Shown here: positions 2 through 55,946 of the stretch, piece by piece
Position numbering within the stretch: the first letter of the stretch is position 1
Layout: every line of letters starts with the position of its first letter
NCBI GenBank assembly: GCA_022709525.1
Contig: JAKLIQ010000007.1
Coordinates: 49,720-113,719 of the forward strand
Direction: 5' to 3'
Length of the DNA: 64,000 nucleotides
DNA from: Candidatus Omnitrophota bacterium
Lineage (GTDB): Bacteria > Omnitrophota > Omnitrophia > Omnitrophales > Aquincolibacteriaceae
Made by a program: the position numbers and the translations under genes
Notes under the pieces: model-generated
Seen by the model: the letters and a program-made list of their open reading frames with translations, nothing else
The model's database searches: none
Told to the model about the DNA's origin: nothing

Positions 2-3000
2 GTCGATGGCTGGAGCTTTGTCGAAACGCGCCAGATGACGCGGGCGGCCTTCGAAGATTTAGCTTCTTATTTAATTGAAGGTTCGAACTCGTATTTAGAG
101 TACCAGGAAGCGAAGCTTTCGATGAGCGCCGGCGACACGTTTTCAATGACAATTTCCCAGGGCGGGACGAGGAGTTACAGTTTCCGGGACAAGGAGACCG
201 GGAGGAGTTTTAGTCTTGGCTCGGCGGCAAGCCATGTTCAATGCGAATGGTCGGAACTGGACGCGGCCTACGTGACAACGACGGGAGTTTTAAACGACCT
301 TACAGCTGCCGGTATTGCAGCTGGATATAAGGTAGAAGACGGAAAAGTCTATCGCATCAAAACATGGAGTTTCTCGGAAATCGTTGAAATGACACAAGCG
401 GCGTTTGAGGAATATGGCGCCAAACTTACCGTGGGCTCGGAAGCGGAAAGACAATATAAAGAAGCCCAAGGTCTCATGGATGAAGATGATAGCTTCATGG
501 TCTCAATATCAGGCGACACCATGAACTACAGCTTTCGCGACAAACAGTCGGGCAGGAGTTTCAGTCTAAGCCAGTCGACGATACCAACGCTTTACGATTG
601 GGATGAAGTTGCCGGGCTTGACCCCGATTTTGTGGATGAAACGGGAGGTGTCAAGATCCTTACCGAAGCGGGCGAGGCCGCTGGATTTTTTATGGTTGGC
701 AATCAGGTTTTCCGTGCCGGCGTCTGGAATTTTTCGGAGAATGTCGAAACGACAAAAGCTGTGTTCCTGGAGCAAACGCAGAATTTAAGCGGACAGGCGC
801 TGGACCTTTATAACGAAGAGAAGGAAGGCGTTACCCTTACGGATGACGATACCTATACGCTTCGCGTGAGCTATGAAGACGGCAACAGTTTCAGTTATCA
901 GTCGGCGGACGGCGCAATATCCTGGAGCATTAGCGCGTCAGAGGAATCTGTCCAAGGCGTTGCCGGCGTCGAAAAAACAACCGTCTGGAGTTTTACTTCC
1001 AGCTCTCAATTCACCTGGGCAGCCGTCTTGGCGGAGGTCTACGCGACGCAAGGATTGACAACGCAAGCAGAAATTAACGCATGGGTAGCCGGCCTCAAGG
1101 GAGCGGATCTTGAAAATTATAATGCGATCCTCGCGTCATCCGAAACAGATACGTTTGTCTATAGCGAGCGGGGGACTCACGACGCAAAAACTCAAAGTTA
1201 CGGCGGTCAAACTGCGGACGGTTCTCGGAGCTGGAGTTTCGGGCGATCATTCAAGGCGTCGCAAGGGAGCCCGACGGAAAGCAATCCGACCGGCATTATT
1301 TATGAATGGGGGAATTGGGAATTCACGGCAAATATGCAGCTCAGCCAAGGCGCCGTGTTGGCCCAGATCTATGCCGCGAATAACCTGACGGCGGGGGATC
1401 AGGCCGCGATCGATGCGTGGTACGCAACTCTGACCGAAGAAGAACAAGCAATTTATAACGGCATTATTGCCGCGCAGGGAGCCGATACTTTCAGTTACAG
1501 TTTGAGCAGGAAATCTGAGAACTACATCCGGCAATCCGAGGACGGCACTACGGTTTGGAGTTTCGGACGGACGCTCGACCCCGTGCTCGGCCGCGCGACC
1601 GGAACGCAGGGAAATAATGTCTGGACGTTCAACGAGAATATCAATATGACCCAGGCAAAATGGCTTGCGACCTTTTACACAGAACACGAATTAGGAACCA
1701 CTGAGGCAGTTAACGTTTGGGTCGCAAGTTTGAGCGCCGATGACCGCGCAAATTATGAGCGGATGATCGCCGCGGCTGGAACTGACCAGTTCTCCTGGTC
1801 CATGGCCAAAAATAGCGTCAATTTTGTCCGTCAAAGCGCCGACGGCGTCATTACCTTAAGTTACGGTCATGATAGGATCACGCTTCCGGCTGATGATTCC
1901 ATCGAGTACCGCACTCGCACGATCGAGGATTATTACCGCGCTATTCTGGGTTACGGTGACGAGCTTATCGCCTCAGCGGCTGTCCAGGAAGAGATCGCAA
2001 ATTGGGCCGGGAGCACATTGACGCTCGCCGCGATCGAAGCGGAATTCCGCGGAGGGAACCCGACCGCGGGAGCCGCCTACCGGATCGCCGCGATCACTAC
2101 CATGTATCGCAATCTTCTCGGCCGCGATGTAACCTCTGACGCAACCGTCTCGGATATCAATATCTATGCGGCCGGGAATCTTACGCTGGAGCAGATCAAA
2201 GCGCAGATCGAACACAGCGCCGAATACCGCACGCGCATTATTTCCGGTTTCTACAGCGATCTCCTTGGGCTTGATACGACGAATACCGAAGCCGCCGCCG
2301 CGATCAGCGCCTATGTCAGCGGAAGCCTTACTTTGGATCAGATCAAAACGGAGATCATGGGGACCCCGGCGTATCGCACCCATATGATCACTAGTTTTTA
2401 TAGCGATCTCCTCGGCCGCGACGCGACCACGGATGCGACGATCGCGGATATCAATACTTATGCCAACGGGACGTTCACTCTGGATCAGATCAAAGCCGAG
2501 ATCATGGGGAGCGCGGAATACCGCACTTACATGATCACCGGCTTTTTCCGGGACCTCCTTGGCCGCACGGACTTGAATTCGGAAGTTACGCTCGCGGAGA
2601 TCAATGCGTTCGTTAATGATGCAACAAAAGCCCTTGATCAGATCAAAGCCGAGATCATGGGGGGTACGGAGTACCGGACGCTTATGGTCACCAGTTTCTA
2701 TACGGATCTTCTTGCCCGTACGGATATTACTTCAGACGCAGCGCTGGCCGAGATCAATGCCTGGGTTAACGATACGACAAAATCCGTCGATCAGATCAAA
2801 GATGCCATTATGGCGTCAGTGGAATATCGCACCTTGAAGGTGACCGCTTATTACCGCGATCTCGTCGGTCTTGATGTTACGGATGCTGCGATCCAGGTCA
2901 AGATCGATGCCTACGTTGCGAGCGATCGTTCGCTCGAAGATATCCGGGACGAGATCGTGGCCGAAAATCCGCTAACCCTTGTGTTCTGGAATTTTTCCGA

Positions 3001-6000: not shown

Positions 6001-9000
6001 CTATAAAGATCGAACGCTCCGTAGTTATTTTGTCACCTATCTCGGCCGCGTCGCTACGGAAAACGAGGTTCGAAGCTTAGTTAAAAATGGCGATTGGGGG
6101 AATGTCGATTTGTCCAGTCTTGAAGAACAATTCAAAAAATGTTCGGTGACGACCTACGATTTTAAGCTTTCGGACGGTACTAATTTTCATTTTGGCTCCG
6201 TTGGTACGGAAAGCAAGACCTATCAACTCAACAAACTTTATCAGAAACTTTTAGGGCGTAATGCAACGGAGGCGGAAAGAAATGCCTGGAATCCCGCGGC
6301 TGTAAAGATCGAAGATCTAGAGAAATCGATGAAAGCAAGCAATTTGGAATATCGCGGCCGCGAAATAAAAACGGCTTATAAAGATCTTTTGGGGATCACG
6401 CCTTCCGATGCCGAAGTGAACCGCTGGCTTGCTAGCGGATTATCTGCGGATACGGTTAAGGGCCTTATTGCCGGCGCAGCCCCCTCGCGCTGGCGCGCTG
6501 CCAGCAGTTACTACCAGCAGCTTCTGAACCGGACTCCGTCCACCGCAGAGATCTACGCTTTGTGTTCGACGGGGAAGACGTTCGACCAGATGCGCAAGAG
6601 CATTGAGGACGGAACGGAATACCGCACGTTGATCGTCGGTCAATATTATGAAACGTTATTGGGACGTCCGGGGAGCGCCTCGGAGATCGCAGGGTGGGTG
6701 AACCAAGACCTGATGCTTTCCGAGATCGAGGCCGATTTTAAACAGGCGCCTGAATACAGAAGCCACCAGATCAACGCAGTTTATCAGGAAGTGCTGGGGC
6801 GGTTAGCCACAACAAATGAGATGACCGCGGCGCAGGCGATCCTGACGGATGCGTTTGAAAATCCGCCGGCGGATCCCGCTCAAACCGCTCTTGAAGTCGG
6901 ATTAGCCGCTATACGCGCCCGCCTTGTCACGCGCCAGGAGTATCGCGCGAAACAGATCGCTGAAGCCTGGACATCCGCTTTTGGAAACGCGCCGAGCGAT
7001 TCCACGCTGAATTACTGGAAATCTTCCACGATGGGGTTGCGGGAAATGACCCAATTATTCTCGGTCTTAAGCGAAGCTTTGCCGGGGGTTACCGAAACGG
7101 TCCAATCGCAATTGACCGGGGTTCAACGTATCGCTTGCGGTTCAAGCAGCGCGACTAACTGCACCCGGAACGGATCCGATGCCGCGAACAGTACGACGAA
7201 TTGGACGCGCGGGTGGATGCAATCGGGAACCGGCCTTTACACATATTGGCAGTCGGATTATTCGACAACGGGGCCCGCTTATTATCGAATGGATTTTGGA
7301 GATCCCGGGGCCACCAGCTGGGAATTGTCGCTTGATGTGCAGAATCATAACATCAGAAATACCAAACCCCCTCTTGCGGGCACCTATTTTGAGATCGAGG
7401 CCCAGATCTGCCCTCTGGAATCCTGCACACAGGATTCGCAATGGATCTCGGCAGGCACTATCCAGATCCCGGCAACCGAATCCGAACAGACGGGAACCTA
7501 CCGGTTTGATACCGCCGCGCCTATCACAGGCCAGCACCTCGTGCGCTTTAAATGGAAGAATGACCAAGCGGACAATACGGGAGATAACAATCTCCAGATC
7601 AATCTCGTGAAGCTTTCATCGCTTGTCTATGCGAGGGAAGCTGAAGTTAACGAGATCTGGAGCGATAGCCATCCTGTCATTACTTCAGCCGCTGAAGCTT
7701 TAACGGCACGGTATCAGGCCGCCGGTCTTGGGGCTTCTCCGACCGCGGCTCAGCTTGCGGCTTACCGGGCCGGGCTCTCAGAAGACGAACAAAGCGTTTA
7801 TGACGCACTCGTCGAAACGGTTGCCGCTAACAGCGCCGAAAACCGGGAGGCGGGGATCCGTCAAATGTATCAACTCCTTAGAGGCGAGGCTCCGGATGAG
7901 ACGACTTTGGAGCAATGGCAAACGTCGAGTCTTACGCTGAACGAGATCGAAGGGCGGCTTATTGACGGCGCCGGCTATATCAAAAACGTTGTTTATAAAG
8001 TGGATGCTTACGGGGATGGCAGTTTGGTGCTCGGACGGACTTTTGATCCTACGAGCGGCAAAGTGGAATATTTTGGCCAGCGACAGCTTACGGACGCGGC
8101 CGGTCTTGATCACGGCATCGGAACCAATCAACGCGCCGTAGAATTCTGGACATACAGCGGAGCGCTGAACGATCCGGCTTCCAAGATCGTGTCGCATCGG
8201 GTGACGTTGGATGTTTACGGGAATGGGACCCGCACACGCACCGCATCATGGACGGTCGTCAACGGCCAGGATGTTGCCGGAAGCGCGGCCTTCGAAGAAA
8301 CTCGAGAGCTTTCCTGGTCGGGCGGGCTTGATCAAGGGCTGGCGGATAATACGCAACGCGCGAGTGAGACGATCCGCTACACGGACAGCACTTTTACGAC
8401 CCGCGGTTCGATCTCCTTTTCGCTGGATGTGAACGGCGATTCATCGCTTGTCCGTTCCGCCAGTTATTTTGTGAATTCCGACGGAACACGCGGAGAATTG
8501 ATCGGTTCGACCATAAAGGAGAATCGGTACGGAACGGATATTTCGGTCAGTAAGAGTTACGACGACTTAGCTTTCAGCGAAGTAAAGACTATCAGCGAGC
8601 AGGAATCCTTGGCTGACGGTACAAGCGATATTACGACGTATGAGGTTTTGGCGGACGGATCCAGGGGCTCGGCGTTAGAATATTCCAACACGCAGCAGCT
8701 CGGCGCTCTTCTTTCCCGCACGATCGTTTATACCGGTTCCAGCCGGACAGCCATTTCCCGCGCATTTGACAGCATGCAGGCGCTTATTCCCAATCGGGGT
8801 TACGACGCTTTCCGTGTCCTGCATTATCAGATTGAACCGCTCAGCGGTCTTGCCAGGACCCAGATCACCTCGGATCATTTAAGAGGCGATTACTTGATGG
8901 AGTACGTTTATAACAGTTCCGGCGCTGTGGTCGATCTCAAGACCTGGGAATTTCCTCAAAATGCCGTATCGGGCGCGCCGGAGATGACCGACACTTTGAC

Positions 9001-12000
9001 AGAAACAACGCCCTCAGCCCTTGTCGATTCCAGCATCGTGACCGACAGCGCGAGCGCTCTACCCGTTGTGATCGAAAGCTTTGACAATGTTAACCAATTG
9101 CGGTGGACACTGCAGGGTAATACTTCCATTGAGAACGGGGTTTTGAAGTTACAAGGCGGTACGGGGGGCTGGGGCGACAATGCGTTTCTTCAGTCGGTCA
9201 GTCCTATTCATAATCCAAGCTGGTCGGCAGATTTTTCGATCGCTGCGGGGGCTACGCAAACCCATCTGGCGGTGGAGGGAACCGGGACAGACGGCCGCTA
9301 CCGGCGTTTGGGGATCGTTCAGCAGTCCGCTAATCAATTAAAGGTTCAGATATACAATGCTGCTACGAACAATTGGGAATATCCCGTTCAGAATATTCCC
9401 TTTGTGGCCGGCAAAGAATACACGGTCGATTTTGAGGTGGTGAACGGAACGCTTAGTCTTTATCTGTACGAGAAAGGAACAGCTCATCCCGCCGCCTCGC
9501 TTTATTCCGTTTCAGTCCGGGATTGGGCGCAGGCGAATTTCCATACCTGGATATGGAGCGGTTCGGCGACGATCTCCGGTCTCCGTTACGGCGCGAATCC
9601 TCCGTTGCCTTCCGTTCTCCAGTCACAGGTAAATGGGGCTAACCGCGTTATTTGCTCAGGATCCAGCATGGCAAACTGCACCAGGACCGGCAACGACACT
9701 TCAACGGATGTCGGAAGATGGACAAAAGGCTGGATAGAATCGGGCACCAGCGCCTATACCTATTGGGATTCGAATACGACGGGAGCGGTTTATTATCAGA
9801 TGGATTTTGGGAGCACGCCCCAAACGACCTGGGAATTTTCAATGGATGCGCAAAATCATCCCTTCAGGACAGCTTCTCCCGTCGCTAACAGTTTTTATGA
9901 AATAGAAGCCCAGATCTGTCCGTTAACGGTTTGCACTCAGGAGTCTCAGTGGGTCTCCGCCGGGACGTTGAAGATCGCCGCGAACGATTCGCAGCAAACC
10001 GGGACGCTTCAATTTAACGCTGCCTCGGCTCTTTCCGGCCAACACACAGTCCGTTTTAAATGGAAAAATAACCTTGGGAACAGCACAAGCGATAACAATC
10101 TTCAGATCAATTCGATCCGGCTTTCCTCACTTTCTTATGCGATCCCGTCCCCGACACTAGCGACCAATCTATTGCCGCTAAACTGGACACTTCGGGGGAA
10201 CACCTCGTTGCAAAACGGCGCGTTGACGTTGCGGGGCGGTACGGCGAACTGGGGGGATAACGCCTTTCTCCAAAGCGTCAACCCTCTCAGCAACCCAAGT
10301 TGGTCCGTGGATTTTTCGATCGCCGCGGGATCTTCCGGTTTTCATGTTGCCGTGGAAGGATCAGGGGCGGATGGGAGCTATCGCCGGTTAGCGTTGGTCC
10401 AGCAATCCGCCAACAAATTACAGGTCCAGATCTGGAATAATAATCGTTGGGAGTATCCCAAGCAGAACATTTCTTTCGTGCCCGGAAGAGAATATACCGC
10501 GGATTTTGAAATGGTGAACGGAACGCTCCGGGTCTTTTTCCACGAAAAAGGCACCCCGCGTCCCGCCATAGCGACTTATTCGGTCTCTACCAGGGACTGG
10601 GCGCAGGCGAATTTCCATACGTGGATCGCTTCGGGATCTGCCGTGATCTCCGATATGCGCGTTTCATCCATGACTTACGCTTCGCAGCTTCCGCTGATCT
10701 CGCAGCTTGAAGCGATCGATCCTTCCTGGAATTTTGACGGGATCGTCGGAGTAGCGAACGGGACCCTTCAATTGACGGGGCCGGGAGGAACAGCTTATTC
10801 GCATTTCAATACGAGTTATTTGGTTCCAAGTCTCAATCCCGCTTACTCCGTCGATTTTTCACTTACCAATGTGGCCAATCCGTCATTTTATCTTGCAGTG
10901 GAGGGAGTGGGACCGAATTTAGGGAGTCCGGATAACGGAACATATCGCCGCTTCGGGATCAAAGTCGATAGCGGAATAGCGACCATCCAAGTTTTTGACG
11001 GCTCGCAGGCATGGAGCTCGGCTCTGCAGAACGTCTCCATGCGCCTTGAGGCCGGGAAAGAATATACGGCAGATTTTATCTCGCAAAACGGCGTCATCAG
11101 GATCTATCTTTACGAAAAAGGCGCGCCGCGTCCGGCTGACCCATTTTTTACCATCCAGAATACGGATTGGCAGGGCATACGGCTTCATAGCTGGATCATA
11201 AACGGAACGGCCAATATCAATGAGATCCGCACGGAGCTGAACCCTGTTTCTGTTGCTTCGAATGTTTCTACGGGAATGATTTACAATCAGAATTATGCAA
11301 GCGCCGCGCTTGGCGCAACCGTGACCGGCGGAGTGAGCGTTGAATCCGCCATCGATGGACTTCTCACCGATAGCGGCTCCACCGGATTCTGGTATGTCAA
11401 TGCTGCTCGGAACGAGAATCTAGCGGCGCTCGGCACGATCGATCTGGGTCAGCTAAGGCGGATCAACGAAATCGGTCTTCAGCTTTGGGACGGCCAAGTT
11501 GATCGGGTTTATTACAACTATAAAGTTCAGATCTCGGCGGACGGGGTCAACTGGACAACCGCTTTTGACGGAACGGGGTCTGGGACAAATTTTCAGGGCC
11601 TGCAGACCATTCAATTTGCAGAACAGGATGTCCGTTATATCCGGATCTCGGGAAGCGGCAACTCAGTGAACGCGGGCTTCCATGTTGAAGAAGTATACGC
11701 AAAACTTGTGCCGCCTTCCGCGATCGATTATGCGTCGCTTGCCATGGGTGCCCGGTTCATTCCGGCCAATCTCAACGTGGGCGCCCCGAACGCCGTTATC
11801 GATCCGGGCGTTTCAGCTACGGGCCACTACTTGTATTCTTTCCTCTGGAGTACCGCGGCAAAAAATGAAACGCTTTACGATATCGGCACTCTCGACCTTG
11901 GCCAATCCCGGACCATTAATGAGATCGGCGTTCACTTCTGGGATGGCGATAACCGCTCTTATTACAATTTCAGCGTCGAAGTTTCCACTGACAATGAACA

Positions 12001-27000: not shown

Positions 27001-30000
27001 AAGCTTCGAGCTGACGCATAGCGTTTATTACGGTGAAAACGGTGTGCCGCTTCAAGTTGATTTAAGGGCGGCAACGGGAGGTCTTTTCAGTGACGCGAGC
27101 TATACAAGTTATGCCATTTCCCGGAACGCCCAGACTGGGTTTTTCCAGGTTTCCATTTCAGGAGGCGATCTGGGTGCCAATGACAGCTTTAATGAGAATT
27201 ATCACCTCTATACCCGCGAAGAGACCAATCATGGTTTTACGACATTTTTGACCAATAACGCCTGGATTGCCGGCGATTTCCATTGCGATCTCGAAAATGG
27301 CTCAAGTTGGGCAGAGTACCATGATTATGCCGCAGAGACATTCCAAGCGGGAGTGATCAGTTTTCAACAATCAATTGAAAAAGCCACGGTATCGATCCAG
27401 CTTTGGACTTCAACTCAATGGAATGAAGGCCATTACGGGAAGCTTGTTCTCGCAGTAGGTGCGATCGCGGTAGGATTTGCGGCCGGAGGGTGGGCCATCG
27501 CCGCAGTCACGGGAACGGGTGCCATTGCTGTAGGCATGACGGCAGTAGTGATTAAAAATATCGCCTGGGGCGTGATCTTCTTTTCTGCTTTTGCCGCAGT
27601 TTCCGTTGCGGGTGGTATTGTCTATGCCGAAAAGCAGAAAAAATTAGTAACAGATCAAGATAACCCGATGGATCCATGGCAGGCCGCCATACAAATATCC
27701 AATGACAGTTGGTGGCTCCACAGGGCTCAGAATTATACCCTTACGACCGCCCTTTTCTTTTTTGCGACCGCGATCGGAACGCCCCTCATGAATCTCGGGC
27801 TGCAGAATGTGGTTGTGCATAGCTGGACTTCGGCGGTCGCAAACTTCTTTAACCGATTTACCTCAAGCGCCTTCGGAAAAGTCATTACCGCACCCTTCCG
27901 ATGGCTTTTTGGGAATGTTTCCGTGGAAGTAATCGCTCAAAAAGAAACTATCGCGGCTTTAAGCCGCTTTGCCGGGGTCAAGGCCTTAGAGGTCGGAGCC
28001 CGCGTATCTTTGACGGGGGCCAATGCGTTTGCCGTCCATCTCATGAGATTTGTTTCCATTAAGGCCCTCTTCGGAAGCGCGATCCATTTGGGCCTCACGC
28101 TTCCATTCCAGATGAATATTGCCGCGAATTTGATTTCAGATATTTTCTATCAGGGGCAGGTCCGTTCCGTTCAGGAACTTGAAGCCACGATGTTAAGCGG
28201 TGGTTGGTCAAGCGGCCGCGGAGGCCTTTTGGGCGTTTGGGATGGTATTAAAAAATCGGTTGCAATGATGTTCTCGCAATCGACGACCGGCTCAGGGCTT
28301 TCCCAAGCGGTCCAGCAATGGTCAACCCCGGAGTTTTGGGTATTTGTGGCTGCCTTTCATTTCCTTTCCTTTATTCCGACGTACTCCGCCGCCGCGGTTG
28401 GAAGATTGGGTGAGTTTATGCTCATCGGCCCCGCGAAAAAGATCTTAGGCGGTTTCGTCCATGCCTTGGGGAGCGTCTTTGGATCTTCGGTAAGCATCGG
28501 GTTGGCGAATTTGCAAGCGGGGGTGGTCAGCTTTATCTGGGGCAGTGGCAGTGTTCTCTGGCAGAGCATCAAGAGTCTTTTTGCGGGTGTTTATGAGGAA
28601 GTTCTAAAAGAGCCGGTTCTGCAAGTTCTTTTACTGTCATGGTTGCCTAGCAGCGCTCAGGAGTATGTGGTGGAACTTTTGGATGCGGCAGATGGCGATA
28701 TGTCGCATTTTATCAGCGCGAGGATGGGAGCGCTCAGCCAAAACCTCCAAGCCTTGGGAGCGGCTGCGCCGCAGGCGATCAAGGGTCTTTCTGTCGGGGC
28801 GCAAAACGATGTTGCAGCAAGACTTAATACGGCCATGATCGCGTTTAAGGCGGGAGATTATACCACCGCCCAAACCAAACTTGCCGAAGCGCTTAATTTA
28901 ATTGGAAGCCAAAAAACCGGGAACCAGCAATTTGACGGCGCGGTCCGTAATCTCCAGGCCATGCAGGCGACCCAGCAAGGGGTTTTAAATCGCTTTAATG
29001 CCGCGCTCCAGGATCCCAATAGTGCTTTGGTTAAGCAATACAGTACGTCGGTCTTATCTGAGATGTATTCGCTTGTTTTCGCCAATCCCTTCATGGACCT
29101 TGGCGCTGTCTCCTCGACGGGGATCGGGGATTTCTCCGGTCTTGCCGCTGTAGCGGCTATTTCTCTTAAACTGTCCGATCCAAAGGTCACCATTAATATC
29201 AAAGGAATGGACGCTAAACTTAATGCCGTGATCGCCAAGCTCCAGAAAGCTGTCGAAGGGATCAGCGATCCCCAGGCAAGGCAGGCGCGCATAAACGCGC
29301 TTGTAGCTAATCTTGCCATAAACGCCTCAGCCCTTACTTATACCGACGCCCAGGGCCAATCGCATGTCAATGAACAGGTTTTAGCGAACGCGGTGCTCGT
29401 TTCACTTGCCGGCGCCGTTACCGCTGAAGCTCTTACTTCTTTTGGTATCAGTCAAAGGGTTATCGATGCTTATGGCTCATTGGAAGGCGAAGTCCAGGCT
29501 GAGTTCCGCCAGGCGCTTTCGGAACGCATCGCTTCCGCAGATGAAAATGCGATCGTTTTTCTCATGATCGGCGCTCAATTGAAGACCGGCTTGAAATCCA
29601 TCGCTAAGGCCGAATCTCTTGCCGGAAAACTCGGTGTTTCCTGGCTGGCCCGTGGCGTCCTCGCTCAAATCGCGACAACAGAAGCCCAGGCAAAAGCATT
29701 GGGCGAGATCCTGATTCAGAATGCCGGCAGTTTTGAATTCTCCAACTTGCTGCAATTCCAGGGCATCTTGACTGCTTCAGTCCTTCTGCAGACAGCGACC
29801 ACAAAAGAACAATTGGTTGCCGCTTTCAACGTTCTTGGAATTACGCTTACAGGCGATCTCTTGGATGCTTTTGAATCGCTTATGACTAGCCGTCCTGATT
29901 TCTTAAAAGACGTTGCCGGCTCTTTAGTGGAATTTGTCCGAAAAGACGGGAAGGTAAGCGCTAGGGATATCCGAAGCACAGTCCTTCTTTCGGTTTTCCG

Positions 30001-33000
30001 GCATGGCGATAAACTTTCAAAAGCAGAAGTCATGAAAGTGACCCAAGCCTTTGGTCAAGAAATCGCCGGCCTCAGCACTTTAGTGCAGGAGCTTGATAAG
30101 CTCGATGAGAGCGTTCTTCCTGTGGTTTTGAAAGCGATCGCTTTGAATGCTTCTGATATGAATTTAACGATCGAAGGCGTCGTTGCCTACAGTCTCAAAG
30201 TAATGGGTGGAATGGCGGTGGCAGATGTCCGAACAAGCGGTGAAACCTTAAAAACCCTTGGAGTTTTTAGCGATGATACGGTTAAGGGCGTCACGGCTGA
30301 TGAATTAGTTGATGATTATGATTCATCTCGCGGCGATCTTGCAGCTGCCTCAAAGGATTATTTAAGAAAGAAAATGCCAGCCGCTCAACAGGTAACGGGA
30401 TCCCAAGCGGTTCCTCAAACCGTTCAGGAAGCAGAGCTTACCCGCGCACAAAACGAGCTTGCGGCGGTCAACGATATTTCAAAGCTCGATGCCGGCACCG
30501 CGATCGGTCTTGCCCAGCGCCTCGCTTTTGCCGAAATGCTTGTTTTTGAGGAGCGTTCCAAAGGGCTTAATCAAGAAGGCTCAACCGCGACGAAGCAGGA
30601 AAAGACCGAGACTTTAAAAACTTATCAGGACGCCCAAGACCAATACGGGAAACTAAAATCTCCGAAATTTTCAAAGGCGGTCTTGGAAGCTCAAGCAAAA
30701 GCCATGGTCAACTGGCTTGTGATCCACGGAGGTCGCACCTCAGCTGTGATCCAGCAGCGGGCGCAATATATGGCCGCCCATCCCGAGACCGGGCCTCCGC
30801 AGATCATTTGGGAGGATCTGCTTAATGAACTGGTCAGCGTTCTTCCTGAGGCTAGTCGCGCCCCCGCCCTTGAACTTTTACGCGGCGATGTGGATGGCGC
30901 TTTAGGGACAATGGAACTTGAAGCAGGGCATAATATTCGCATTTTAGAAGAGAGGGTCAAGCGATCATCCCAGCAAGCTCCCAACGCCAAGGATATGCGG
31001 GCACTTTCTGAGGCGCGTTTCACGGAACGTGCCGCACGCATGGCGCGTATGGAAATCGCCCGTGTTTTTGCTCGTAACACCGCAAGCGCCGAAGAGATCA
31101 CCTTACGTATTAGGGCTGCGGAAAGTAAGCTCGCGGAACTTCAAAAGCAATCCGAAGATCCCACGCTGGCAGCTTCGGTCCAAAATGATCTTATTTTGCA
31201 GCAAGAACAGCTTATCTCCCAGATCACTTTCTTTAAGAGGATCCAGGAGAACATCCGTCTTAATCAGAAAGGAGGGGTTAAGGGGCTTTCTTTCGGTCTT
31301 GAGACAAAAACCTACGCCTTTTTAAATGAACGTGTGACCGATCATGAAGCTGGCGCAAATCCGATCCTGCTTAAATATACGACAAAGCCCAAAACAGACG
31401 GTACCGCGCTTCGCGTGATTCGTGCTGAGACAAGCGAATCGGAGTACCGAAAGGTCGCTAAATACGCCGAAATGTCGCCCGAGCAGCTTGCCGCCGTTAT
31501 CGAGCTTGCCAAGCTTTATAATCAGACGATCGAAATGTGGGAAGCTTTTGTGGGTTGGGATATTGCCTCCCGCAATCAGGTGGAGCAGGGCGTTGCGATC
31601 GCAAATCTTATTTTTAGCCCCAATCTTTTCCACGAGATCCCGACGGGTACCGGGAAAACCTCGACTATTTTTGCTTCGCTCATGATTTTCCATAAGGCGT
31701 TCAAGCAAAGAGCCGAGCAACTTAAATCCGAAAAGGCGGGGACGCAAACCCTTGCGGAGATGCAAAAACTTTACAAAAATTCCGATGGGAGGCTCATTTT
31801 CATTCTTCCCGATCTCAATCTTTTCGAGCAGACCGAAGGGGACATCAAGCCCTTTGCGCAAGGCGGTCTTAAATTTGCGTATTTTACCGAAAAAACGCTT
31901 GATGCGCTTCGCACAGATGAGGCAAAAGGTGTTATTGATGAATTCCAATCGGCCGATGTCGTGATTGTCTTAAACCAAGCCGCAGCGTTCCTGCAGCTTA
32001 ATAAGCAAGCTTCTGAGGCGGACTATAAACGTAAGGTTGGCGCTCCCAAGATTGCGATCGAACGTTTTTATGATATGTTTATGACCAATAACCGCGTTCT
32101 TGCCGACGAAGCCGACACTTGGTTTACGCAGCCTCCGAGCCAAATGGGCGAGGGGGAACGCTTACTTGGAAAGCCCGGATTTGAGTATGAGATCGAGCAT
32201 TCGGCCTTAATTGACCAGGCGATCATGGGCGTTGTGGGCGAAGGAGTTTCGGGCCTTGATGCGCTTGAAGCGCAGCGGCGCATGCTTACGGTTTCTGTCG
32301 TACTTGAGAAGGGCGGCGCGCCCGAGCTTATGTCGTGGGAAGAGTGGCAGAAAAAAGGCGCCCCCGGCCAACTCCTTGATGCGCGTATCGATGGCGTAAG
32401 ATCCAAAGAAGGGGAAGCTGCGATCGCTGCAATTTCCAAAGCTCTCGTTGGGATGCTTGCCAAATACGGTATTACCGCAGATGAAGGAACAGTGAAATCC
32501 TGGCTTCTCCAATCCCCTCAGGAATTCGAACAGCTTCCGGATGCCCGCATTAAAGAAATTATGCGTGAGGCCCGCGCCTCCCTGGTCGGTCGCGCCAAAG
32601 CGATCCGCCAACGCGAGGGCGGCGATGTTGCCAAATACATGCGCCTTGTCCCGATCAAGAAAAATGAAGCGCTTATGAAAGTCTTTACCGGTCGCGAGGA
32701 TCTGGAAGGTGCGGCACTCCAACTGATGCTTCATTTTAACGGTCGTCCCGAAGCACTTCGCGACATCGCAAACGGGAAGGGTAAGTCATATCGCGACGGT
32801 GAGATTCTCTACAATAAAGAGCTTCGCGAGGCCTACGACCTCCTAGTTAAAAACGACATGCTTCGGTATCTTGATAAGTTCGCACCGCGGTGGACGATTG
32901 CAGTTGTTTCCAATAAAACCATTAATCCAAGACTCCAAATGAGCGATCCTTATCTGAATGCTCACACCCAGCTTGTTTTCCTGCGCGCTTATGGCGAGTT

Positions 33001-36000
33001 GGGCGCCGCGCTTGGCACAATCGATGGCGCATCAAAAATGGGCGAACAAAAAGCAGATATCAAGACCTCCGAGGGCCTTGATCGGTTTTTGCGTCATGTG
33101 ACGGTCTCGGGCAATGCCACTCACTCAACTCAAGAAGAAATGATCCGGGCCCTTAAGATGCGCGGTTCGACTCTGGGTGGTTTTTCAGGGACCCTTGGTC
33201 ACGTCCGGTCAGGCCTTGAAAAGATGTATGGTGCCCGGATGCTTCGTTATGTCGAAAATAACCCTTACTTTGGCGCACTTTCAGGCGATGAAGCAGCGCT
33301 CATATCTTTATCGGAGGTAGAAAAAGTCCATGCGAAGGTCTTGCTTCGGGCCGTTCAGGTCGCTTCCGAACTCGATGGCGCATCAAAGAAAACCCAAGAA
33401 GAATATTTAGCGGATCTTGAAGGCCTTCTTAAAACACTTCAAGCGTCTCCGGAGCTTCGTCATTCATTAAGCGTGGTTCGCCTTGCCCATGAGCGATTGC
33501 GCGAGCTTGGCAAACTCGATACGCTTCAAGGTCTTAAATTCGAACGCGGGAACCGTATGATTGAGGATGCCCGCATCGAACTTACGGGGAATGATCAAGC
33601 TGCCTTCGAGAGCTTTAGGGCCAAAATGTTGCGGAACCAGGCCGCCAACGCTGTTTTCTGTAACGGCCGCGCTAATATTGGCGCCGATGACGCGGCGGTC
33701 GTGAACGCCTTTCTTGCCATGTATCAGGAGCTTGCATTGAGCGATCCCAGTAAGGTTTTCAATGGCAAAGATTTCTTTACCTTGGTTTATGCCGATCGTT
33801 TGGCAGGCGTTTGGCGCGTTCGTAGACTCAATCGTCAGGGCCAGAAAGTGGATCAAGAAGGTAAAGTGCTTACCGACCAGCAGGCGGAGGATCTTAAGAT
33901 TGACGTGAGCGAGGTGAAGAGTTACCTGACGCGCGCAGCTGAGAATGAACATGTCGCGCTTTACTTTAATGAAGCAACGCTTCGCGGTATCGATACGGTT
34001 TTTACAGCCAATCTCCAGACCTTTGTCTTAGCCGATGAAGGCTCGATCGGAAACGTGATGGAACAGCTCTTTGGACGTCATCGCGGCGTTCGTGAACTCG
34101 TCGAAATTAACGGGAAGATGGTCATCAAGGATATCTACGCGACAAGCGAGGAAGCTGCTCGCGATTTTGCAGCAGGTAAAATCACGCGGGAAGATATGTT
34201 AAGGGAGGTTGCTAAAGGTGAAGGTGGGAAGTTCACGACCCAAGAACAGCGTACAAAAAACGGAAAACAGGTCAATAACTACAAGATCTATCAGGCTCTC
34301 GAGATTGCCTTTGTCGATCCTTCCTCGAGTGTTCTGAGCTCACAATTACAAGCCGCGGAGGAATCCTTAAGAGAGGCCTGGGCTTCAGGCGATGAAGAGG
34401 CTTTTGAATCTGCCCAAAAAGAACTTGCACGCATCCAATCCGCCAAAGAGATAAGCGTTTTCGAGCTGGAGACGATTCTGGCCGAAAACCGCCTTCTTTC
34501 CAGCCAGCGCAGTAACTATGACGGGGTTCGTAATGCAATGGAAGGCACGATCCGTACACATCTCATTTATCTGATTGCTACGGCAAAATCCGCTGAGGCA
34601 AAAGAAGCCCTGCATCAAGAACTCGTTCGGTTTGAACAAAAGCTTGCCAAGGATATCCAGACCCAGACCTTGCGCGGCGAACTTGCCACAGAAAGCCTTT
34701 TAGGGATCGTGAAAAACGCGCTTGCGCGCTACCGTTCGATCGAAGCCAATACAGAGTTAGTAAAACTGCTCGCCAAAGAACAGCCTGCGATCTTAGCTGA
34801 GATCCGAGAGCAGACTAGGGCCTTAGAAGAGAATATGAACGATTTCTTAAAAGACGATAAGCATTTATCCCTTTTTGCAAGGCAGGAGCAAAGGTCCGCA
34901 ACCGGGGAAGTTACAATCCGCTGGATCCATGTGCTTACCGATCGCGCGACCGGTAATGTCATTTCAAGTGAAGATGCAGGGGTGGTTCCTCTTGGCGCTA
35001 CAGCCCAAAGGGATGGTTTGACGGGAGATTATAGCTTTATCGCAGAAGACGGGAAAAAACTTTCTATTTCCGCGGAGCGGGTGGGGGTTGTGATGGCCCG
35101 GAACCCGGCCGAGGCATTAGTCCTCATCAATCAATGGTATCGCAATGACGATTTCGCCCGGTTTGCGCCCTACGGCGGCCGTCCCGATGTCGCGGCAACG
35201 GCTTATCAGAGCAAAGAAGACGCGGCAGCCATGCTTGCTACCAAGATGGATACCGAACCGGTCGCTGAAAACAAGGAGCTTAGCCCCGACCAGAAGCGCG
35301 TCCAAATCCACGATCCTTCCGGATTAGTCGATGCGTTATTTAACTGGGCGAAAGAGCGCGGTCTTATCCAGGGAGAATATCTTACCTCCGGCGGTTCAGA
35401 GGTTCTTTCGGGCTTTAAGAGTTTCCGTGACGCGTTACTTCGTGATCCCGCTCGCGCTATTGGGATCCTGGAAGGACTTGAGGTCCGCGGGATTATCCCC
35501 GAATCATTAAAAGCAGAACTAGCAGCGATTAAAGAATCCACAACCGGGACGCTGGATCGCGAAAAACAAGAACGTCTTGATCTTGCGATTCTCAGGCTTT
35601 TCCAGGGTCTTGTGGATGCCGGGCTTCCGATTACCCAAGATGCGCTTTCAGATGTTTTTGGTATCTTAAAAGAGATCTCAACATGGCTTGAGGGTGTTTC
35701 GGATGCAAAGATCACGATGCGGGACATCGGTCGCGCGATTGCAGAGGGCCGTGAGGAGTGGCGAGCCGTGTTCCTGAAGACCCTCTTTGCCCGGGCCGAT
35801 GCCACTAATGCCCGTATCATTCAGCTGAAAGCGCTTTATGGGTCTCTTGTCACGCAATACGATGCGATGCAGAAGGTGCGAGCCAAGCAGATGCGCGATG
35901 AGGTGCGCTTCACGGAGCTTTCAGCCAGGATCCTTGGCGCTCTCTCAACGAGTAAGTGGAAACGGTTGACACAGAAGCTTTGGGCGTTTCGAATCTATCG

Positions 36001-39000
36001 TACGGCGACACCGATGGATCCTTCCGCAAAACTTATAAAACGACTTTTTCAGAAATTCCCATGGCGTGTCTCTTTGCGCTCGGCTCTTGGTCGCGCAAGT
36101 CACGAACGCCAAAAACTCTTTAAGGATTCCTTCAAGGATATCGCGAAGATCATGGCTTCCAAGGAGTGGCATGATAAGACTACGGTGCAAACGCTTGTCG
36201 ATGCGCTGTCCGAGCTGCCGGAGGGTCAGCAGGCGACAGGAGCTGATCTTGCCGAACTTTATTGGGGTACCGCCGCGGGGGCTTCTTCGCGGATGACACA
36301 CGCAGCCTTTATCGCAAAGTGGGCTCCGATTTTTGAAGGCTTGCTTGCCTTAGATAGGGCCGGCAAAGTCGCCCTTTCTCAAATAACGCTTCGGGATATT
36401 GCTAAGAAAGGTCTTCTCGATAAGTTTGAAAAAATGCGCCGACTTCCCGTGTTTGATGATTGTTCAAGTGAGAACGCTGCCGCCTGCACTTCGGATCTTT
36501 TAGCGATCACGCTTGAAGCAAACAATATCGTCGCCGGATCGTGGAAGCAGGGGTGGCGTCGGATCCAAGCCTGGTTTGAAGCCCGGTATCCGGCTCAGTA
36601 CGCCGTCTTAAGCGCACTTTCTGCGATCCCTGATTCTTTAGTCTCGCTTTGGCTGAAGGTTCGCATGGCTGTGGCCGCGCGATTTGATATCGGCAAACTT
36701 TCCGCAGGAGTTGCGTATTTGAAGCCAGTTATTCGCGAGGGTGAGCCGCCGAACCAGGATCTCGCCTATCGGCTGTGGCGCGATCTACGCTCAAATAATA
36801 AGGACCAGCAGAAGAGCGCGTGGGAGACGATCCTTGCAATGCAGGGGAAGGAATGGTCGCGCTTTGGCAGGAAAACACGCAAGTCAGCTGAAAAGGCAGC
36901 GCGTGAGGCGCTTTCCACCCCTGTCAAAGGCGAAGGTAATTGGATCGCGTTAAGCGGGCGAAGCAAGGTCGGAAATGTCGGAGTCACCCATGTACGTCAT
37001 CTTTACGTAATTGCCAAGACCTATCAACTGCCCAATGTCGGACGGCTTGTCGTGATCCCTGAAACGGAGACAACGGGCAGAATTGCTTATGCCGAACATC
37101 CGGAGTTAGCGCCGATCGGCAGTGTTGTTTCCATGGAAACCGGGAAGGTCACGATCGAGGGAACGGCTTACACCGCGCAGGCTCGCGATGAACGTGTTGA
37201 GACCTCAGTCTACAGGGTTTCTCAGCTTCTGGGCAGCGCTCAGGAGCCGAGTGAGATTTATGTTTACCGTGACAAAAATGAGAAAGAAAAACGCGACAAC
37301 CGTTATGTTTACAATGAAAAGCGTCAAACAAAAAAGACTAACGCGCTCTTAGAGCAATGTCGCAAAGGGAAGACCGTTCGGGTACGCGAGAATTACCACT
37401 CAAAGGATCTTCGCCGGAAATATCAGGAGCTTTTAAGTCGTCTAGACCGGCGCCTGCCAAAGGAGATCCGGGATGCACAGAAAAAATTTATCGAGAGCTT
37501 GCCGTCCGGTGAGCGAACGAAATACGCCGCCTTCTTAGCGGTGAATGCCAAACGCAGAGCGCTTTTGGAGCAACGGGGAGGCTCCCAGAAATTTACACCC
37601 GCCATGATCGAGGAGATCCAAAAAGACCATCCCGGTGTTAGCGAAAAAGATGTTTATGCATTCCTCGGCATTTCGGAAACGGTCTACCGAGCGCTCAAGC
37701 AGGCGCAGGACCAGATCTCCGAGCAGCGGGGTCAGATTGAAGCGGACACAAAGCTTAACGCGAAAGAGAAGACCCATCTTCTGGCAACATTAGAGGGATT
37801 GGATGAAATGTCCCGCGGCGTCGAGTTAAACCCAGATACCGAAGCCTATAACTCGAAAGGGACGTTCTACTTAAGCATTCAGATGCTTCAAGAGTTGAAT
37901 CTCTTTCTCCAGGAGTTTTCACCGGAAGAACAGCCCGGCGCCATGCGCGCCTATCTCCAGCTTTACATGATTCACGAGAAGATTGAAAAAGATCTCTCAG
38001 ATTTCCAGAAGATCCTTAAATGGCTTGAGCAGGATCTTAAGCAACAACTCGAACAAAGCCTTGAAGAGCAGGATATAGAGAGACTTGCTTCCTTAATGGC
38101 CCGTCGAGCTTTCTTGAGGCGCGTACAGCAAAAACTCGGATTCCAGGGTAAAGACGATATTGGCCAGGCGTTTCGCGATTTTGCGGCAGAAATGACCTCG
38201 ACTTATTTCTTGATGAAATTGATGCCGGATCAAGGCGCGCTTGCCGTCAAGGCTCTTCGTGTGATGGGACAACTGAAAGGCAATAGTCTTATGGGCGATA
38301 AGGCGGATTTCTACACTTGGCGCGGCCTTGCGGCTAAGGATGCTTGGAGAAGCGCCCAAGAAGGGAATCTCTTTTCTTTCGAGATCTTGCAGAATTATTT
38401 CCGGCAGAGTTTTTCGGCTCATTATTACCAGGTCCTCGAAGCGATCAGTCGGGGAGAATTTGGGATCGCGAATTCGATCCTTGATAAAAAGTGGAATGAA
38501 TCAAGGACTGTGGACGGCGAACCTGCGATAGATTATCGCACGTATGTGGAGCTTAAAAAATTGATCCATAAAGCTCGCGGGGAAGAGATCCAGGTCAGTC
38601 GCGCCACGAATGGCCCCAATAAGGGCGAGATCGAGATTAAGATCACAGGCGCGACCCCAGCTCTCCCGGATGAGGCTATGAAGGAAGCTTTTGAAATGCG
38701 CTCTCGGCTTGATCGGGATCTTAAAGATTTTATGGATCTTTTTTCGCAGCGAAGTGAGCTGACGAAAGTCCATAAAGCCGCTGAAGCGGATATCCAGAAA
38801 AAAACTGAAGAAAAAGCCAAAGAGCTTAAAACGAAGTTCATAGGATCCGGCCCCGAAGCCTGGCAGGAGCAACGGAAAAAAATGGAAGAGCGGAGCCAGG
38901 GCGCTCGGGATGCATTTGATACGTATAAAGATATGGCTCACAATCCCGAGCTTCGCGAGAAGTTTGCCGCTGAAGCAAATACATTTAAAACAAATGTGAA

Positions 39001-55834: not shown

Positions 55835-55946
55835 AGAGCTCGCCCCGTTAGAAGTTTAACCCTATCACAAAAAATCATAGAACGATATTTTCCCGGAAAT
55901 GGTTGGATATGTGTTCCCGCCATATTTTTTTGAACTTCTAACGGGG

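Follow-up and report, generated by a model that had tools for sequence, protein, structure and literature searches.

How small-genome bacteria manage to produce, export and employ proteins tens of thousands of residues long is a standing question, raised again by a locus of a Candidatus Omnitrophota bacterium in which one reading frame runs through the first 40.7 kb of the 64,000-nt stretch of DNA analyzed here (the window). Published proteins of this phylum reach lengths of 39,678, 85,804, and 147,155 aa, and 94% of complete Omnitrophota genomes encode one or more proteins of at least 10,000 aa (bioRxiv 10.1101/2023.11.21.568195; 10.64898/2026.06.07.730766; PMC10066038). West-Roberts et al. 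apply the term “giant” to proteins of at least 30,000 aa and distinguish a “large” band of 15–20 kaa (bioRxiv 10.1101/2023.11.21.568195). In the giant open reading frames (ORFs) of Omnitrophota, adhesion domains of the discoidin or laminin-G type occur together with transmembrane (TM) helices (PMC10066038). Divergent SecA-DEAD domains, for which a role in the export of the protein that bears them was proposed, have also been reported on them, as has a locus resembling type II/IV secretion systems (T2SS-like) upstream of the giant genes (bioRxiv 10.1101/2023.11.21.568195).

Extent and Integrity of the Gene

Frame +2 is free of stop codons from nt 2 to 40768 and closes with TAA at 40769–40771, which gives 13,589 codons; the next-longest stop-free run, whichever of the six frames is read, has 676 codons. 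The other two forward frames contain 727 and 526 stops within this 40.7-kb stretch. From the base composition, 13,589 codons without a stop have a probability of about 10^-279, and among 200 shuffles the longest run had a mean of 171 codons and reached 273 at most. This bears out the claim of an earlier note on this DNA that a stop-free frame of more than 40 kb is essentially impossible by chance at this GC content. As the frame contains no in-frame stop of any kind, stop-codon reassignment is not an issue. The same note held that the gene continues upstream and that its first residues already match an internal W-S-F repeat. Indeed, the frame is still open at the 5′ edge of the window, where the first of six copies of the W-S-F unit profile spans aa 3–79, and a gene caller run on the source contig (JGI Ga0116241_10000211; 166,670 bp) called a product of 18,667 aa. 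This call puts about 5,078 codons (15.2 kb) upstream of the window, from which we infer a gene start about 15,234 nt upstream; the W-S-F repeats probably continue in that direction. On the source contig, the gene is calculated to occupy positions of about 75,422–131,425 on the reverse strand. No relative of aa 1–330 was found in a scan of metagenome contigs, nor was any match to aa 1–110 in a word-indexed protein search. With its 18,667 aa, the protein is “large” in the sense of West-Roberts et al. and lies below “giant”; to rank it among the largest bacterial proteins, as the earlier note did, was an overstatement in view of the published lengths given above.

The source of the window is a metagenome assembled from short reads, and its product is repetitive at the protein level in the N-terminal third (self-BLAST repeats are limited to aa 151–4541, with identities of at most 64%), two circumstances under which a long ORF could be a chimeric join or a collapse of repeats from several loci. 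However, the best internal DNA repeat of the ORF reaches 71% identity over 455 nt, which leaves no near-identical repeats for collapse or mis-joining, and GC3 and codon usage are uniform along the ORF and like those of its neighbors, the relative synonymous codon usage correlating with that of 19 neighboring genes at r = 0.89 in frame and 0.35 off frame. Independent assemblies point in the same direction. HOW87841.1, an NCBI protein from a metagenome-assembled genome (MAG), is encoded on a contig of 23,509 bp and matches aa 5609–13444 (7,836 aa) with 100% identity, so that a second assembly is available from aa 5609 onward; besides this contig, the 3′ end was found again in three further assemblies, and ENA ERZ795054, a third assembly, is 99.93% identical over the stop codon and the 3′ flank. 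One of the loci retrieved (L001) corresponds to window positions 32899–53447 at 100%. Moreover, homologous modules lie in very long ORFs at loci of 11 other genomes. Given the lack of near-identical internal DNA repeats and the neighbor-like codon usage, the ORF is not considered an assembly artifact, an explanation that appears extremely improbable, and the single real gene proposed in the earlier note stands. The neighborhood of the window was also recovered in MAG GCA_035389965.1; the DnaK encoded in the window is HOW88133.1, and both HOW88133.1 and HOW87841.1 carry the label Candidatus Omnitrophota bacterium. Most relatives of the C-terminal module are likewise Omnitrophota MAGs, so that the parallel with the giant genes of this phylum, first offered as a conjecture, proved correct.

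Architecture of the Extracytoplasmic Candidate Region

The ordered domain structure noticed beforehand was recovered as 28 DUF4214-like units, three F5/8 type C domains, two TM clusters and a superfamily 2 (SF2) ATPase (Table 1). The N-terminal ~9,500 aa in the window are acidic, poor in Lys/Arg and rich in Gly/Ser/Thr/Asn; the composition switches at about aa 9,500–10,000, and the last ~3,100 residues are charged and helical. Pfam scans covered all tiles and half-offset tiles of the window protein at E ≤ 0.01. DUF4214 was matched with E = 2e-18 and 8.7e-17 and with lower scores, the count of 28 copies coming from an iterated HMM. The F5/8 type C (discoidin) region was matched by F5_F8_type_C_2 (E = 9.8e-41) and F5_F8_type_C (E = 2.8e-37), each in three stretches. 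Two further domains are repeated three times each. Copies of domain “A” share 35–59% identity in self-BLAST, and the domain has no match in PDB or Pfam. Copies of domain “B” share 34–64% identity, and the domain is possibly a carbohydrate-binding module (CBM) or lectin-like, to judge from weak outside matches to Pfam CBM_4_9 (E = 6.5e-4, below cut-off) and to a carbohydrate-binding module in PDB (E = 0.28); profiles of the internal lectin-like repeats gave non-significant PDB matches only. A YD-repeat assignment of aa ~4550–5380 is tentative, the motifs having been read from the translation, and Pfam RHS_repeat did not match there at E ≤ 0.01. An NCBIfam scan of aa 4001–13589 returned a weak SMC coiled-coil match alone (E = 0.0056), and PDB phmmer searches with aa 2350–3750, 4250–5400, and 6000–9100 returned no match.

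Table 1. Features of the gene and its product within the window (nt, window positions; aa, residues of the 13,589-codon frame).
Feature	Residues (aa)	Position (nt)	Strand	Basis
3′ part of 18,667-codon gene (13,589 codons + TAA)		2..40771	+	stop-free frame; source-contig gene call
Six W-S-F units, ~100 aa each, acidic	3–616	8..1849	+	iterated HMM on own protein; self-BLAST
28 DUF4214-like helical units, ~50 aa each	641–2664	1922..7993	+	Pfam DUF4214; iterated HMM
Cys-containing beta domain “A”, copy 1, ~180 aa	2361–2544	7082..7633	+	self-BLAST; alignment A6
Domain “A”, copies 2 and 3		9599–10141, 13220–13624	+	self-BLAST
Domain “B” (three copies), ~190 aa each	3017–3748	9050..11245	+	self-BLAST; alignment A5
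Three F5/8 type C domains (discoidin, NedA-like galactose-binding)	3764–4237	11291..12712	+	Pfam
Beta-rich region with YD-repeat-like motifs, e.g., IYEYDADGRL	~4550–5380	13649..16141	+	read from translation
Coiled-coil segment rich in Ala and charged residues	~5385–5600	16154..16801	+	translation; weak SMC match (NCBIfam)
Hydrophobic cluster 1, at least 5 strong TM-like helices	5805–5996	17414..17989	+	Kyte-Doolittle
Region between TM clusters, 3,100 aa, unique	6000–9140	17999..27421	+	composition; self-BLAST
Hydrophobic cluster 2, ~3 strong and 4–6 weaker TM-like helices	9148–9519	27443..28558	+	hydropathy
Conserved C-terminal module	~10446–13589	31337..40768	+	BLASTP; HMMER
SF2 (two-RecA-lobe) ATPase		31409..34321	+	motifs
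Walker A PTGTGKTS		31640–31663	+	ATPase motif
DEAD		32105–32116	+	ATPase motif
NPRLQMSDPY		32924–32953	+	ATPase motif
GFSGTLG		33179–33199	+	ATPase motif
ATLRGID		33974–33994	+	ATPase motif
GRHRG		34073–34087	+	ATPase motif
C-terminal 1,050 aa		37619..40768	+	conserved motifs
Invariant HExxE		37973–37987	+	motif
Invariant RDxxAE inside matched FRDFAAE block		38171–38191	+	motif
Two HExxH		39311–39325, 40049–40063	+	motif

The two hydrophobic clusters, which together contain at least eight strong 19-residue windows, were called by a Kyte-Doolittle hydropathy scan rather than by DeepTMHMM, the windows of cluster 1 scoring 1.8–3.5. Between them, aa 6000–9140 are G/S/T/N-rich and poor in K+R, with no known domain in Pfam, NCBIfam, or PDB and no internal repeats in self-BLAST. 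Cluster 2 and the linker that follows (aa 9100–10446) have no similarity to any relative in phmmer. This crude hydropathy scan and the composition suggest a topology in which the repeat and lectin part would lie outside the cytoplasmic membrane and the ATPase module would be cytoplasmic, the latter because ATP is available there. TM helices follow the ATPase in some relatives and none do so in the window protein; hence, the HExxH part may lie on either face of the membrane.

A Rare Conserved C-Terminal Module

In BLASTP comparisons with the homologs P0002, P0007, P0008, and P0010 and with loci L005–L015, similarity to other proteins is confined to aa 10446–13589. An exhaustive HMMER search of 1.84e9 representative proteins returned 16 matches to this module. 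A search of 185,579 species genomes returned 11 loci, 6 of them named Omnitrophota, with a short motif alignment (A2) as the query, alignment A1 being too divergent for this use; at all 11, the module lies in a frame that is stop-free across the retrieved DNA, for up to 6,768 codons. With A2, a protein index yielded only the 317-aa P0012, and with aa 10401–11800 it yielded no match, not even the identical HOW87841.1, so this index seems to miss very long proteins. PADLOC and PHROGs gave no match to the module.

Within the module, the ATPase has an insertion of ~350 aa between motifs II and III, and the GK of Walker A, DExD, motif III and the arginines of motif VI are invariant across the family. 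The protein ends with a final alpha/beta domain and a conserved “...xAA” tail. The N-terminal payloads of the relatives cannot be aligned with one another, and the whole proteins range from about 2,300 to 18,667 aa.

Affinities of the ATPase

Fold comparison confirmed the SF2 fold and placed SecA among the top matches, with DinG equally close. On the one hand, the ATPase has the two lobes of a DEAD motor fold, interrupted by an insertion that separates motifs II and III. On the other hand, neither sequence nor profile comparison gave significant similarity to the SecA motor (NBD1-PPXD-NBD2): at E ≤ 0.1, the SecA Pfam models, PF07517 (SecA_DEAD) included, match none of the 8 family members, searches of PDB with phmmer and hmmsearch did not retrieve SecA, and hhalign of A1 against E. 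coli SecA covered 35 columns only with a non-significant E = 0.078. The helical scaffold, wing and C-terminal linker domains of SecA were not recognized in the window protein either, and, unlike SecA, this ATPase is fused into a protein of more than 18,000 aa, behind TM clusters. Alignment of A1 with DinG by hhalign was not significant, and the ATPase is not separable by fold from DNA helicases such as DinG. Since the ATPase is translated last and can offer no co-translational help to its own N-terminus, any role in export would have to be post-translational or in trans.

Comparison with Published Omnitrophota Proteins

The window protein has the attributes of the large ORFs of the phylum: it belongs to an Omnitrophota genome, exceeds 20 kb and 10,000 aa, and has multiple TM helices as judged by hydropathy only. 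With the giants of Seymour et al. (2023; PMC10066038), it shares the phylum, an ORF of more than 20 kb, multiple TM helices, large and presumably extracellular regions of discoidin (PF00754) and lectin-like type, few annotatable domains and poor sequence conservation. Unlike these giants, it has no laminin_G_3 or dockerin match in the window and is dominated by DUF4214-like units; the dockerin (PF00404) and TSP3 (PF18884) repeats of dockerin-type giants found no Pfam match. A counterpart of its C-terminal ATPase module is not described in that work.

The “archaeovorin” type, a 39,678-aa protein of Velamenicoccus archaeovorus LiM (bioRxiv 10.1101/2023.11.21.568195), resembles the window protein in phylum, membrane association and great length. 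Both have an SF2 ATPase far from the N-terminus, that of archaeovorin being annotated as a very divergent SecA-DEAD without scaffold and wing domains, and an adhesion or cell-surface role has been proposed for archaeovorin-type proteins as it is here. By contrast, the glycosyltransferase, methyltransferase, glycosyl hydrolase, peptidase, NUDIX, and HEAT domains of archaeovorin have no counterpart in the 13,589 aa of the window. PilZ and sugar-import genes lie downstream of the giants of West-Roberts et al. and are absent on the 3′ side of this gene within the window. A third class, the “tandem-repeat scaffold” of Nielsen and Lui (2026; bioRxiv 10.64898/2026.06.07.730766), is comparable in that a single Pfam family (here, DUF4214) leads in copy number, the repeats are old and have diverged in their DNA, and an otherwise varied long polypeptide is membrane-anchored. 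The dominant families given there include TSP3, ConA-like lectin, NHL, PATR, WD, HEAT, and TPR; DUF4214 is not among these, and, unlike proteins of that class as portrayed there, about two-thirds of the window protein is non-repetitive.

Possible Functions and Alternative Explanations

The reading favored here, and one that is probably correct, is that of a genuine single Omnitrophota gene for a membrane-anchored, multi-domain envelope protein of a kind already reported to be common in the phylum. Its extracytoplasmic repeat and lectin part would attach to a carbohydrate-bearing surface, be it that of a host cell, of a prey cell or of the bacterium's own coat, and the ATPase module would be held in the cytoplasm. 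As the module alone is conserved, while the payloads cannot be aligned and the proteins differ so widely in length, it may serve the whole family as an invariable accessory unit, namely a SecA-like motor, possibly equipped with metalloprotease-like sites for processing, that would assist in the export, insertion, maturation or remodeling of the very long part beyond the membrane.

Each half of this reading has competitors. The fold comparison that brings SecA to the top brings DinG just as close, and the C-terminal ATPase could accordingly be a nucleic-acid helicase or translocase of DinG/XPD- or RIG-I-like type instead of a protein-export motor, an identity judged unlikely. A helicase in this position would couple a surface anchor to the handling of DNA or RNA at the membrane, for instance to take up or process the nucleic acids of an attached cell, or for defense. 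The extracytoplasmic part, for its share, might serve the bacterium itself as a structural, S-layer-like coat or as a scaffold of its envelope, with discoidin and lectin modules that bind its own glycans. A cluster for deoxysugar modification and glycosyl transfer lies directly downstream, and the DUF4214 repeats dominate by copy number, two observations in keeping with such a coat. The genes 3′ of the ORF code for an AbiEii-like nucleotidyltransferase, the deoxysugar modification cluster (nt 41723–50106: GDP-mannose 4,6-dehydratase, two B12-radical-SAM enzymes, a DegT aminotransferase, a GT2 glycosyltransferase, and methyltransferases), a Bat/MoxR operon and DnaK; no tRNA gene or Rfam family was found in the window. 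However, these downstream genes are not conserved in the relatives, so the sugar cluster may adjoin the gene by chance, and neither an S-layer homology domain nor another cell-wall anchoring domain was detected. A coat of this kind, which overlaps the envelope protein favored here and differs from it solely in the ligand, is accorded a small probability.

The YD-like motifs of aa ~4550–5380, recognized by eye, call to mind polymorphic toxins of the RHS/YD type, in which a YD-repeat shell encloses a toxic domain and delivers it to neighboring cells; the homolog P0008 also has YD-like stretches, and RHS-like antiparallel beta-helices were described in Omnitrophota giants by West-Roberts et al. 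(bioRxiv 10.1101/2023.11.21.568195). Against this stand the lack of any Pfam match to RHS_repeat, an RHS core or a toxin domain at E ≤ 0.01, the position of the YD-like region, which is not C-terminal and precedes a further 8,000 aa, the TM clusters among them, and the nature of the part that the family conserves, an ATPase module and not a shell with its toxin. Such a toxin is therefore considered very unlikely.

Concluding Remarks

Neither the size record nor the general picture of the phylum is changed much by this gene, since very large, membrane-anchored, adhesin-like proteins are already typical there. Its C-terminal module is another matter, being rare and clearly delimited, with ATPase motifs that are all invariant while the remaining protein varies. 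At its most ambitious, the envelope-protein reading would make this ~3,100-aa module an undescribed, self-contained and cis-encoded engine, analogous to SecA, that exports, inserts or matures very long surface proteins in a small, mostly Omnitrophota family with exchangeable payloads of ~1,000 to more than 15,000 aa, and that is distinct from the PF07517-positive domains on Omnitrophota giants; this proposal is advanced as a speculative one, with a rather low chance of being right. The ATPase alone, at ~970 aa, is of a size suited to expression and assay, which would permit a direct test of whether a protein-translocation motor of their own or a nucleic-acid helicase is built into these proteins.

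A Single, Genuine Gene of 18,667 Codons

Frame +2 is free of stop codons from nt 2 to nt 40768 of the window and closes with TAA at 40769–40771, which gives 13,589 codons, while the runner-up stop-free run in all six frames reaches 676 codons; across these 40.7 kb, stops number 727 and 526 in the two remaining forward frames. A base composition of 51% G+C implies 0.046 stops per random codon and puts the chance probability of so long a run at about 10^-279, and the longest run in 200 shuffles averaged 171 codons with a maximum of 273, which bears out the claim of an earlier note that this frame is not the product of chance. Since no in-frame stop of any type occurs, reassignment of a stop codon cannot inflate the open reading frame (ORF). 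The same note held that the gene extends beyond the 5′ edge of the window and that the first residues visible there are already part of an internal W-S-F repeat, an acidic unit of ~100 aa. Both points stand: a profile built from one unit places a copy at aa 3–79, the first of six in the window, and the gene product is called at 18,667 residues, against 13,589 codons in the window, on contig Ga0116241_10000211 (166,670 bp) of JGI metagenome 3300010429, so that ~5,078 codons (15.2 kb) lie upstream.

Other records reproduce much of the locus. A partial protein of 7,836 aa (HOW87841.1) is 100.000% identical to aa 5609–13444; the 23,509-bp contig that encodes it, from MAG GCA_035389965.1, falls entirely inside the giant ORF. 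The DnaK of the window corresponds to HOW88133.1, and both proteins are labelled “Candidatus Omnitrophota bacterium.” A piece of the JGI contig (L001) is 100% identical to window 32899–53447, the 3′ flank is reproduced at 100% by two ENA assemblies and the MAG, and a third ENA contig matches at 99.93% from the last 20 nt of the ORF through the stop codon into the flank. An assembly artefact, by chimerism or collapsed repeats, is made unlikely by the low identity of the best DNA-level repeat inside the ORF (71% over 455 nt), by the even GC content at the three codon positions along the gene and by a codon usage that matches that of 19 neighboring genes (RSCU, r = 0.89, vs. r = 0.35 when the frame is shifted); repeats at the protein level occur in aa 151–4541 only, at no more than 64% identity. 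We conclude that the giant ORF is a genuine gene rather than a chimera or collapsed repeat, with aa 1–5608 resting on one assembly.

Architecture and Predicted Topology

Features of the giant protein (residues of the frame +2 translation, aa) and of its surroundings (nucleotides of the window, nt)
Feature	Position	Strand	Remark
W-S-F units (6)	aa 3–616	+	Profile search from one unit
DUF4214-like units (28, ~50 aa each)	aa 641–2664	+	Pfam E down to 2e-18
Cys-containing ~180-aa domain (3)	aa 2361–2544, 3200–3380, 4407–4541	+	
~190-aa domain (3)	aa 3017–3748	+	CBM_4_9 signal weak
F5/8 type C domains (3)	aa 3764–4237	+	Discoidin, NedA-like galactose-binding; E = 2.8e-37 and 9.8e-41
Beta-rich stretch with YD-like motifs	aa ~4550–5380	+	No RHS profile match in Pfam
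Ala-rich coiled coil	aa ~5385–5600	+	
Hydrophobic cluster 1	aa 5805–5996	+	At least 5 strong helices
Unique sequence (3,100 residues)	aa 6000–9140	+	Unmatched in Pfam, NCBIfam and PDB
Hydrophobic cluster 2	aa 9148–9519	+	
Charged helical region	aa ~9560 to end	+	
AbiEii-like nucleotidyltransferase	nt 40927–41487	+	Pfam E = 8.9e-8; weak PADLOC AbiEii matches
Small overlapping 65-aa ORF	nt ~41480–41677		After AbiEii-like gene
Deoxysugar modification cluster	nt 41723–50106	+	Downstream of giant gene
Paired B12-binding radical-SAM genes	nt 43501–44943, 44940–46382	+	480 aa each; stop/start codons overlapping
YqeY		−	
Bat/MoxR-type operon	nt 51063–56936	−	VWA-TPR, BatA-VWA, DUF58, MoxR
VWA + TPR (BatD-like) gene	nt 51063–53045	−	660 aa; in Bat/MoxR operon
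DnaK, methyltransferase, sigma-54 response regulator, histidine kinase		−	DnaK is HOW88133.1

The composition of the protein shifts sharply at about aa 9,500–10,000. Before the shift, K+R mostly account for 5–8% of residues (range 3–13% in windows of 500 aa), with a negative net charge and 25–37% G+S+T+N; after it, K+R mostly make up 12–17% (9% in the final 89-aa window), G+S+T+N ~20% and helix-forming residues ~50%. This composition would fit a protein whose N-terminal two thirds are extracytoplasmic and whose C-terminal quarter is cytoplasmic. The C-terminal part that bears HExxE/HExxH motifs may lie on different sides of the membrane in different family members, because the window protein has no TM-like helix past aa 9811 and several relatives (P0002/L007, L006, L008 and L009) have strongly hydrophobic TM-like helices beyond the ATPase (e.g., P0002 aa ~3763–3820).

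A Rare Family Defined by its C-Terminal Module

An exhaustive HMMER search of 1.84 billion representative proteins with aa 10430–11600 returned only 16 matches, including, besides an identical fragment, proteins of 5,450, 5,761, 7,525 (7,550 elsewhere) and at least 2,577 aa; all those with an organism label come from Omnitrophota MAGs. Scanning 185,579 species genomes with a short ATPase-motif alignment yielded 11 loci, named Candidatus Omnitrophota (six), “uncultured bacterium” (four) and “uncultured Planctomycetia” (one weak match). In every one of them the frame around the motif has no stop codon anywhere in the DNA retrieved (696–6,768 codons, mostly open-ended), and the motif is followed by ~2,530–2,960 aa where the 3′ end of the gene is visible, vs. 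2,614 aa in the window gene. BLASTP similarity to relatives is restricted to aa ~10446–13589, and none was detected, even by phmmer, for hydrophobic cluster 2 and the linker. Since similarity stops at aa ~10446 and lengths span from 2,270–7,525 aa in complete relatives to 18,667 aa for the window gene’s product, the family combines a constant C-terminal module with a freely varying N-terminal part. The weakest genomic match (L015, CAYWPX010000003.1, “uncultured Planctomycetia bacterium”) has a frame of at least 6,762 stop-free codons; either the module is present elsewhere in the PVC group as well, or the bin carries the wrong label.

An SF2 ATPase Accompanied by Possible Protease-Type Motifs

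The Walker A Gly-Lys, DExD, “PRLQQSDPY..AHTQ,” “GFSGT,” “ATRG.D,” and “Q..GR.RG” are invariant in an alignment of eight ATPase regions, and the SF2 catalytic apparatus is thus intact and conserved. At the sequence level, the similarity to helicases is weak and generic: in Pfam, ResIII (E ~6e-4) and DEAD (E ~6e-3) both stay below their own cut-offs, SecA_DEAD matches none of the eight sequences at E ≤ 0.1, and PDB profile matches to the region have E > 0.04 only. As modelled by AlphaFold2 (mean pLDDT 66; mostly 75–89 over the first ~600 residues), the fold is that of a two-lobe SF2 ATPase in which ~350 aa are inserted between motifs II and III. Such an insertion is known both in SecA (PPXD) and in DinG/XPD helicases (Arch domain).

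When compared with the PDB by Foldseek, the model retrieved B. subtilis SecA at E = 5.7e-4 with probability 1.00 and the highest TM-scores, RIG-I at 8.8e-4 and DinG at 2.4e-4; DinG being on a par with SecA, the enzyme could equally be a nucleic-acid helicase. Neither E. coli SecA nor DinG was significant by hhalign, the SecA alignment covering the motif III block only (“LAGMTGTA...IYKLDTVVVP” vs. “LGGFSGTL...MYGARMLRYV,” E = 0.078). The ATPase cannot be assigned to SecA over DinG/XPD, or vice versa.

Downstream of the ATPase, where the model (pLDDT 58) gave no informative fold match, all eight sequences share HExxE (aa 12658) and RDxxAE (aa 12725) without variation, and HExxH occurs at aa 13104 (conserved in 5/8) and aa 13350 (4/8), among relatives aligning there; the chance expectation for HExxH is 0.1 in the whole protein. 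In the 5,855-aa ORF of locus L012 (CAYLXA010000004.1), the C-terminal module adds to its HExxH motifs one that resembles the JAMM/MPN+ metalloprotease motif (“YHTHPAGEEGEVSAIPSGIATGD”), which suggests that protease-type sites recur there. The protein ends in ...SVAQAA (aa 13581–13589, nt 40742–40768), and a small-residue tail, usually “...xAA,” is found at every complete C-terminus in the family, as compared in the window, in four homologous proteins (P0002, P0007, P0008, and P0010) and at the ends of the long ORFs of L006 and L012 (relatives: ...AASSA, ...LAARAA, ...VLIAA, ...LQSAA, ...HISAAA, and ...AVASAA). The ssrA degradation tag likewise ends in Ala-Ala, and because of this resemblance the tail could be a ClpXP, tail-specific-protease or sorting signal.

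Genomic Surroundings

The AbiEii-like gene lies directly 3′ of the giant gene, with no obvious AbiEi antitoxin partner nearby. The cluster that follows encodes a GDP-mannose 4,6-dehydratase, a 182-aa protein of unknown kind, two paralogous B12-binding radical-SAM enzymes, two to three methyltransferases (including a C-methyltransferase), a DegT aminotransferase and a family-2 glycosyltransferase; the cluster might attach sugars to the giant protein or make the glycan to which that protein binds. Its linkage to the giant gene is not conserved in relatives, and the downstream genes of two relatives differ again from those here. No PilZ or sugar-import gene was found at the 3′ end of the giant gene, and no tRNA gene or Rfam family in the window. 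The VWA + TPR gene stands out by its codon-position composition (GC1 0.675, GC2 0.271) and overlaps a strong trough in AT skew (−0.33) at 50–52 kb.

Relation to Known Giant Proteins

Very large proteins like this one are already common in Omnitrophota: Nielsen & Lui (bioRxiv 10.64898/2026.06.07.730766) count 3,650 proteins of at least 10,000 aa in 18 samples, give 147,155 aa as the maximum and note that 93.8% of complete Omnitrophota genomes encode at least one such protein. The giant gene shares the phylum, length and TM helices of the general very large ORFs of Omnitrophota. In Pfam scans of its window part, it shows neither the enzyme domains of “Archaeovorins” nor the repeats (dockerin and TSP3) that mark the “Dockerin type,” and its product, at 18,667 aa, is under the 30,000-aa “giant” threshold. 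The best fit is to the “tandem-repeat scaffold” class of Nielsen & Lui and to the giant ORFs with discoidin domains described by Seymour et al. We could not find a published description of the sharply delimited C-terminal module with HExxE/HExxH and the “...xAA” tail, which the SecA_DEAD model does not recognize and which may or may not correspond to the published “divergent SecA” domains.

Possible Function

The locus holds a single very long gene whose product has N-terminal modules of binding type (discoidin, DUF4214), hydrophobic helices in two clusters and, within a rare conserved C-terminal module, an intact SF2 ATPase. The N-terminal ~9,500 residues of this protein would be exposed beyond the cytoplasmic membrane and attach to surfaces that carry carbohydrate, and the ATPase module would stay in the cytoplasm, where it may serve in the export, insertion, maturation or remodeling of the long external part. 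That the module serves this part is suggested by its being the only conserved portion of a family with interchangeable payloads. Translated last, the ATPase cannot give its own N-terminus co-translational help across the membrane. Giant ORFs of Omnitrophota that combine TM helices with discoidin or laminin-G domains on the extracellular side have been described as putative adhesins (Seymour et al., PMC10066038), and very divergent SecA-DEAD domains devoid of scaffold and wing have been reported on giants, with a suggested role in their own export (West-Roberts et al., bioRxiv 10.1101/2023.11.21.568195); the mechanism envisaged here agrees with both proposals.
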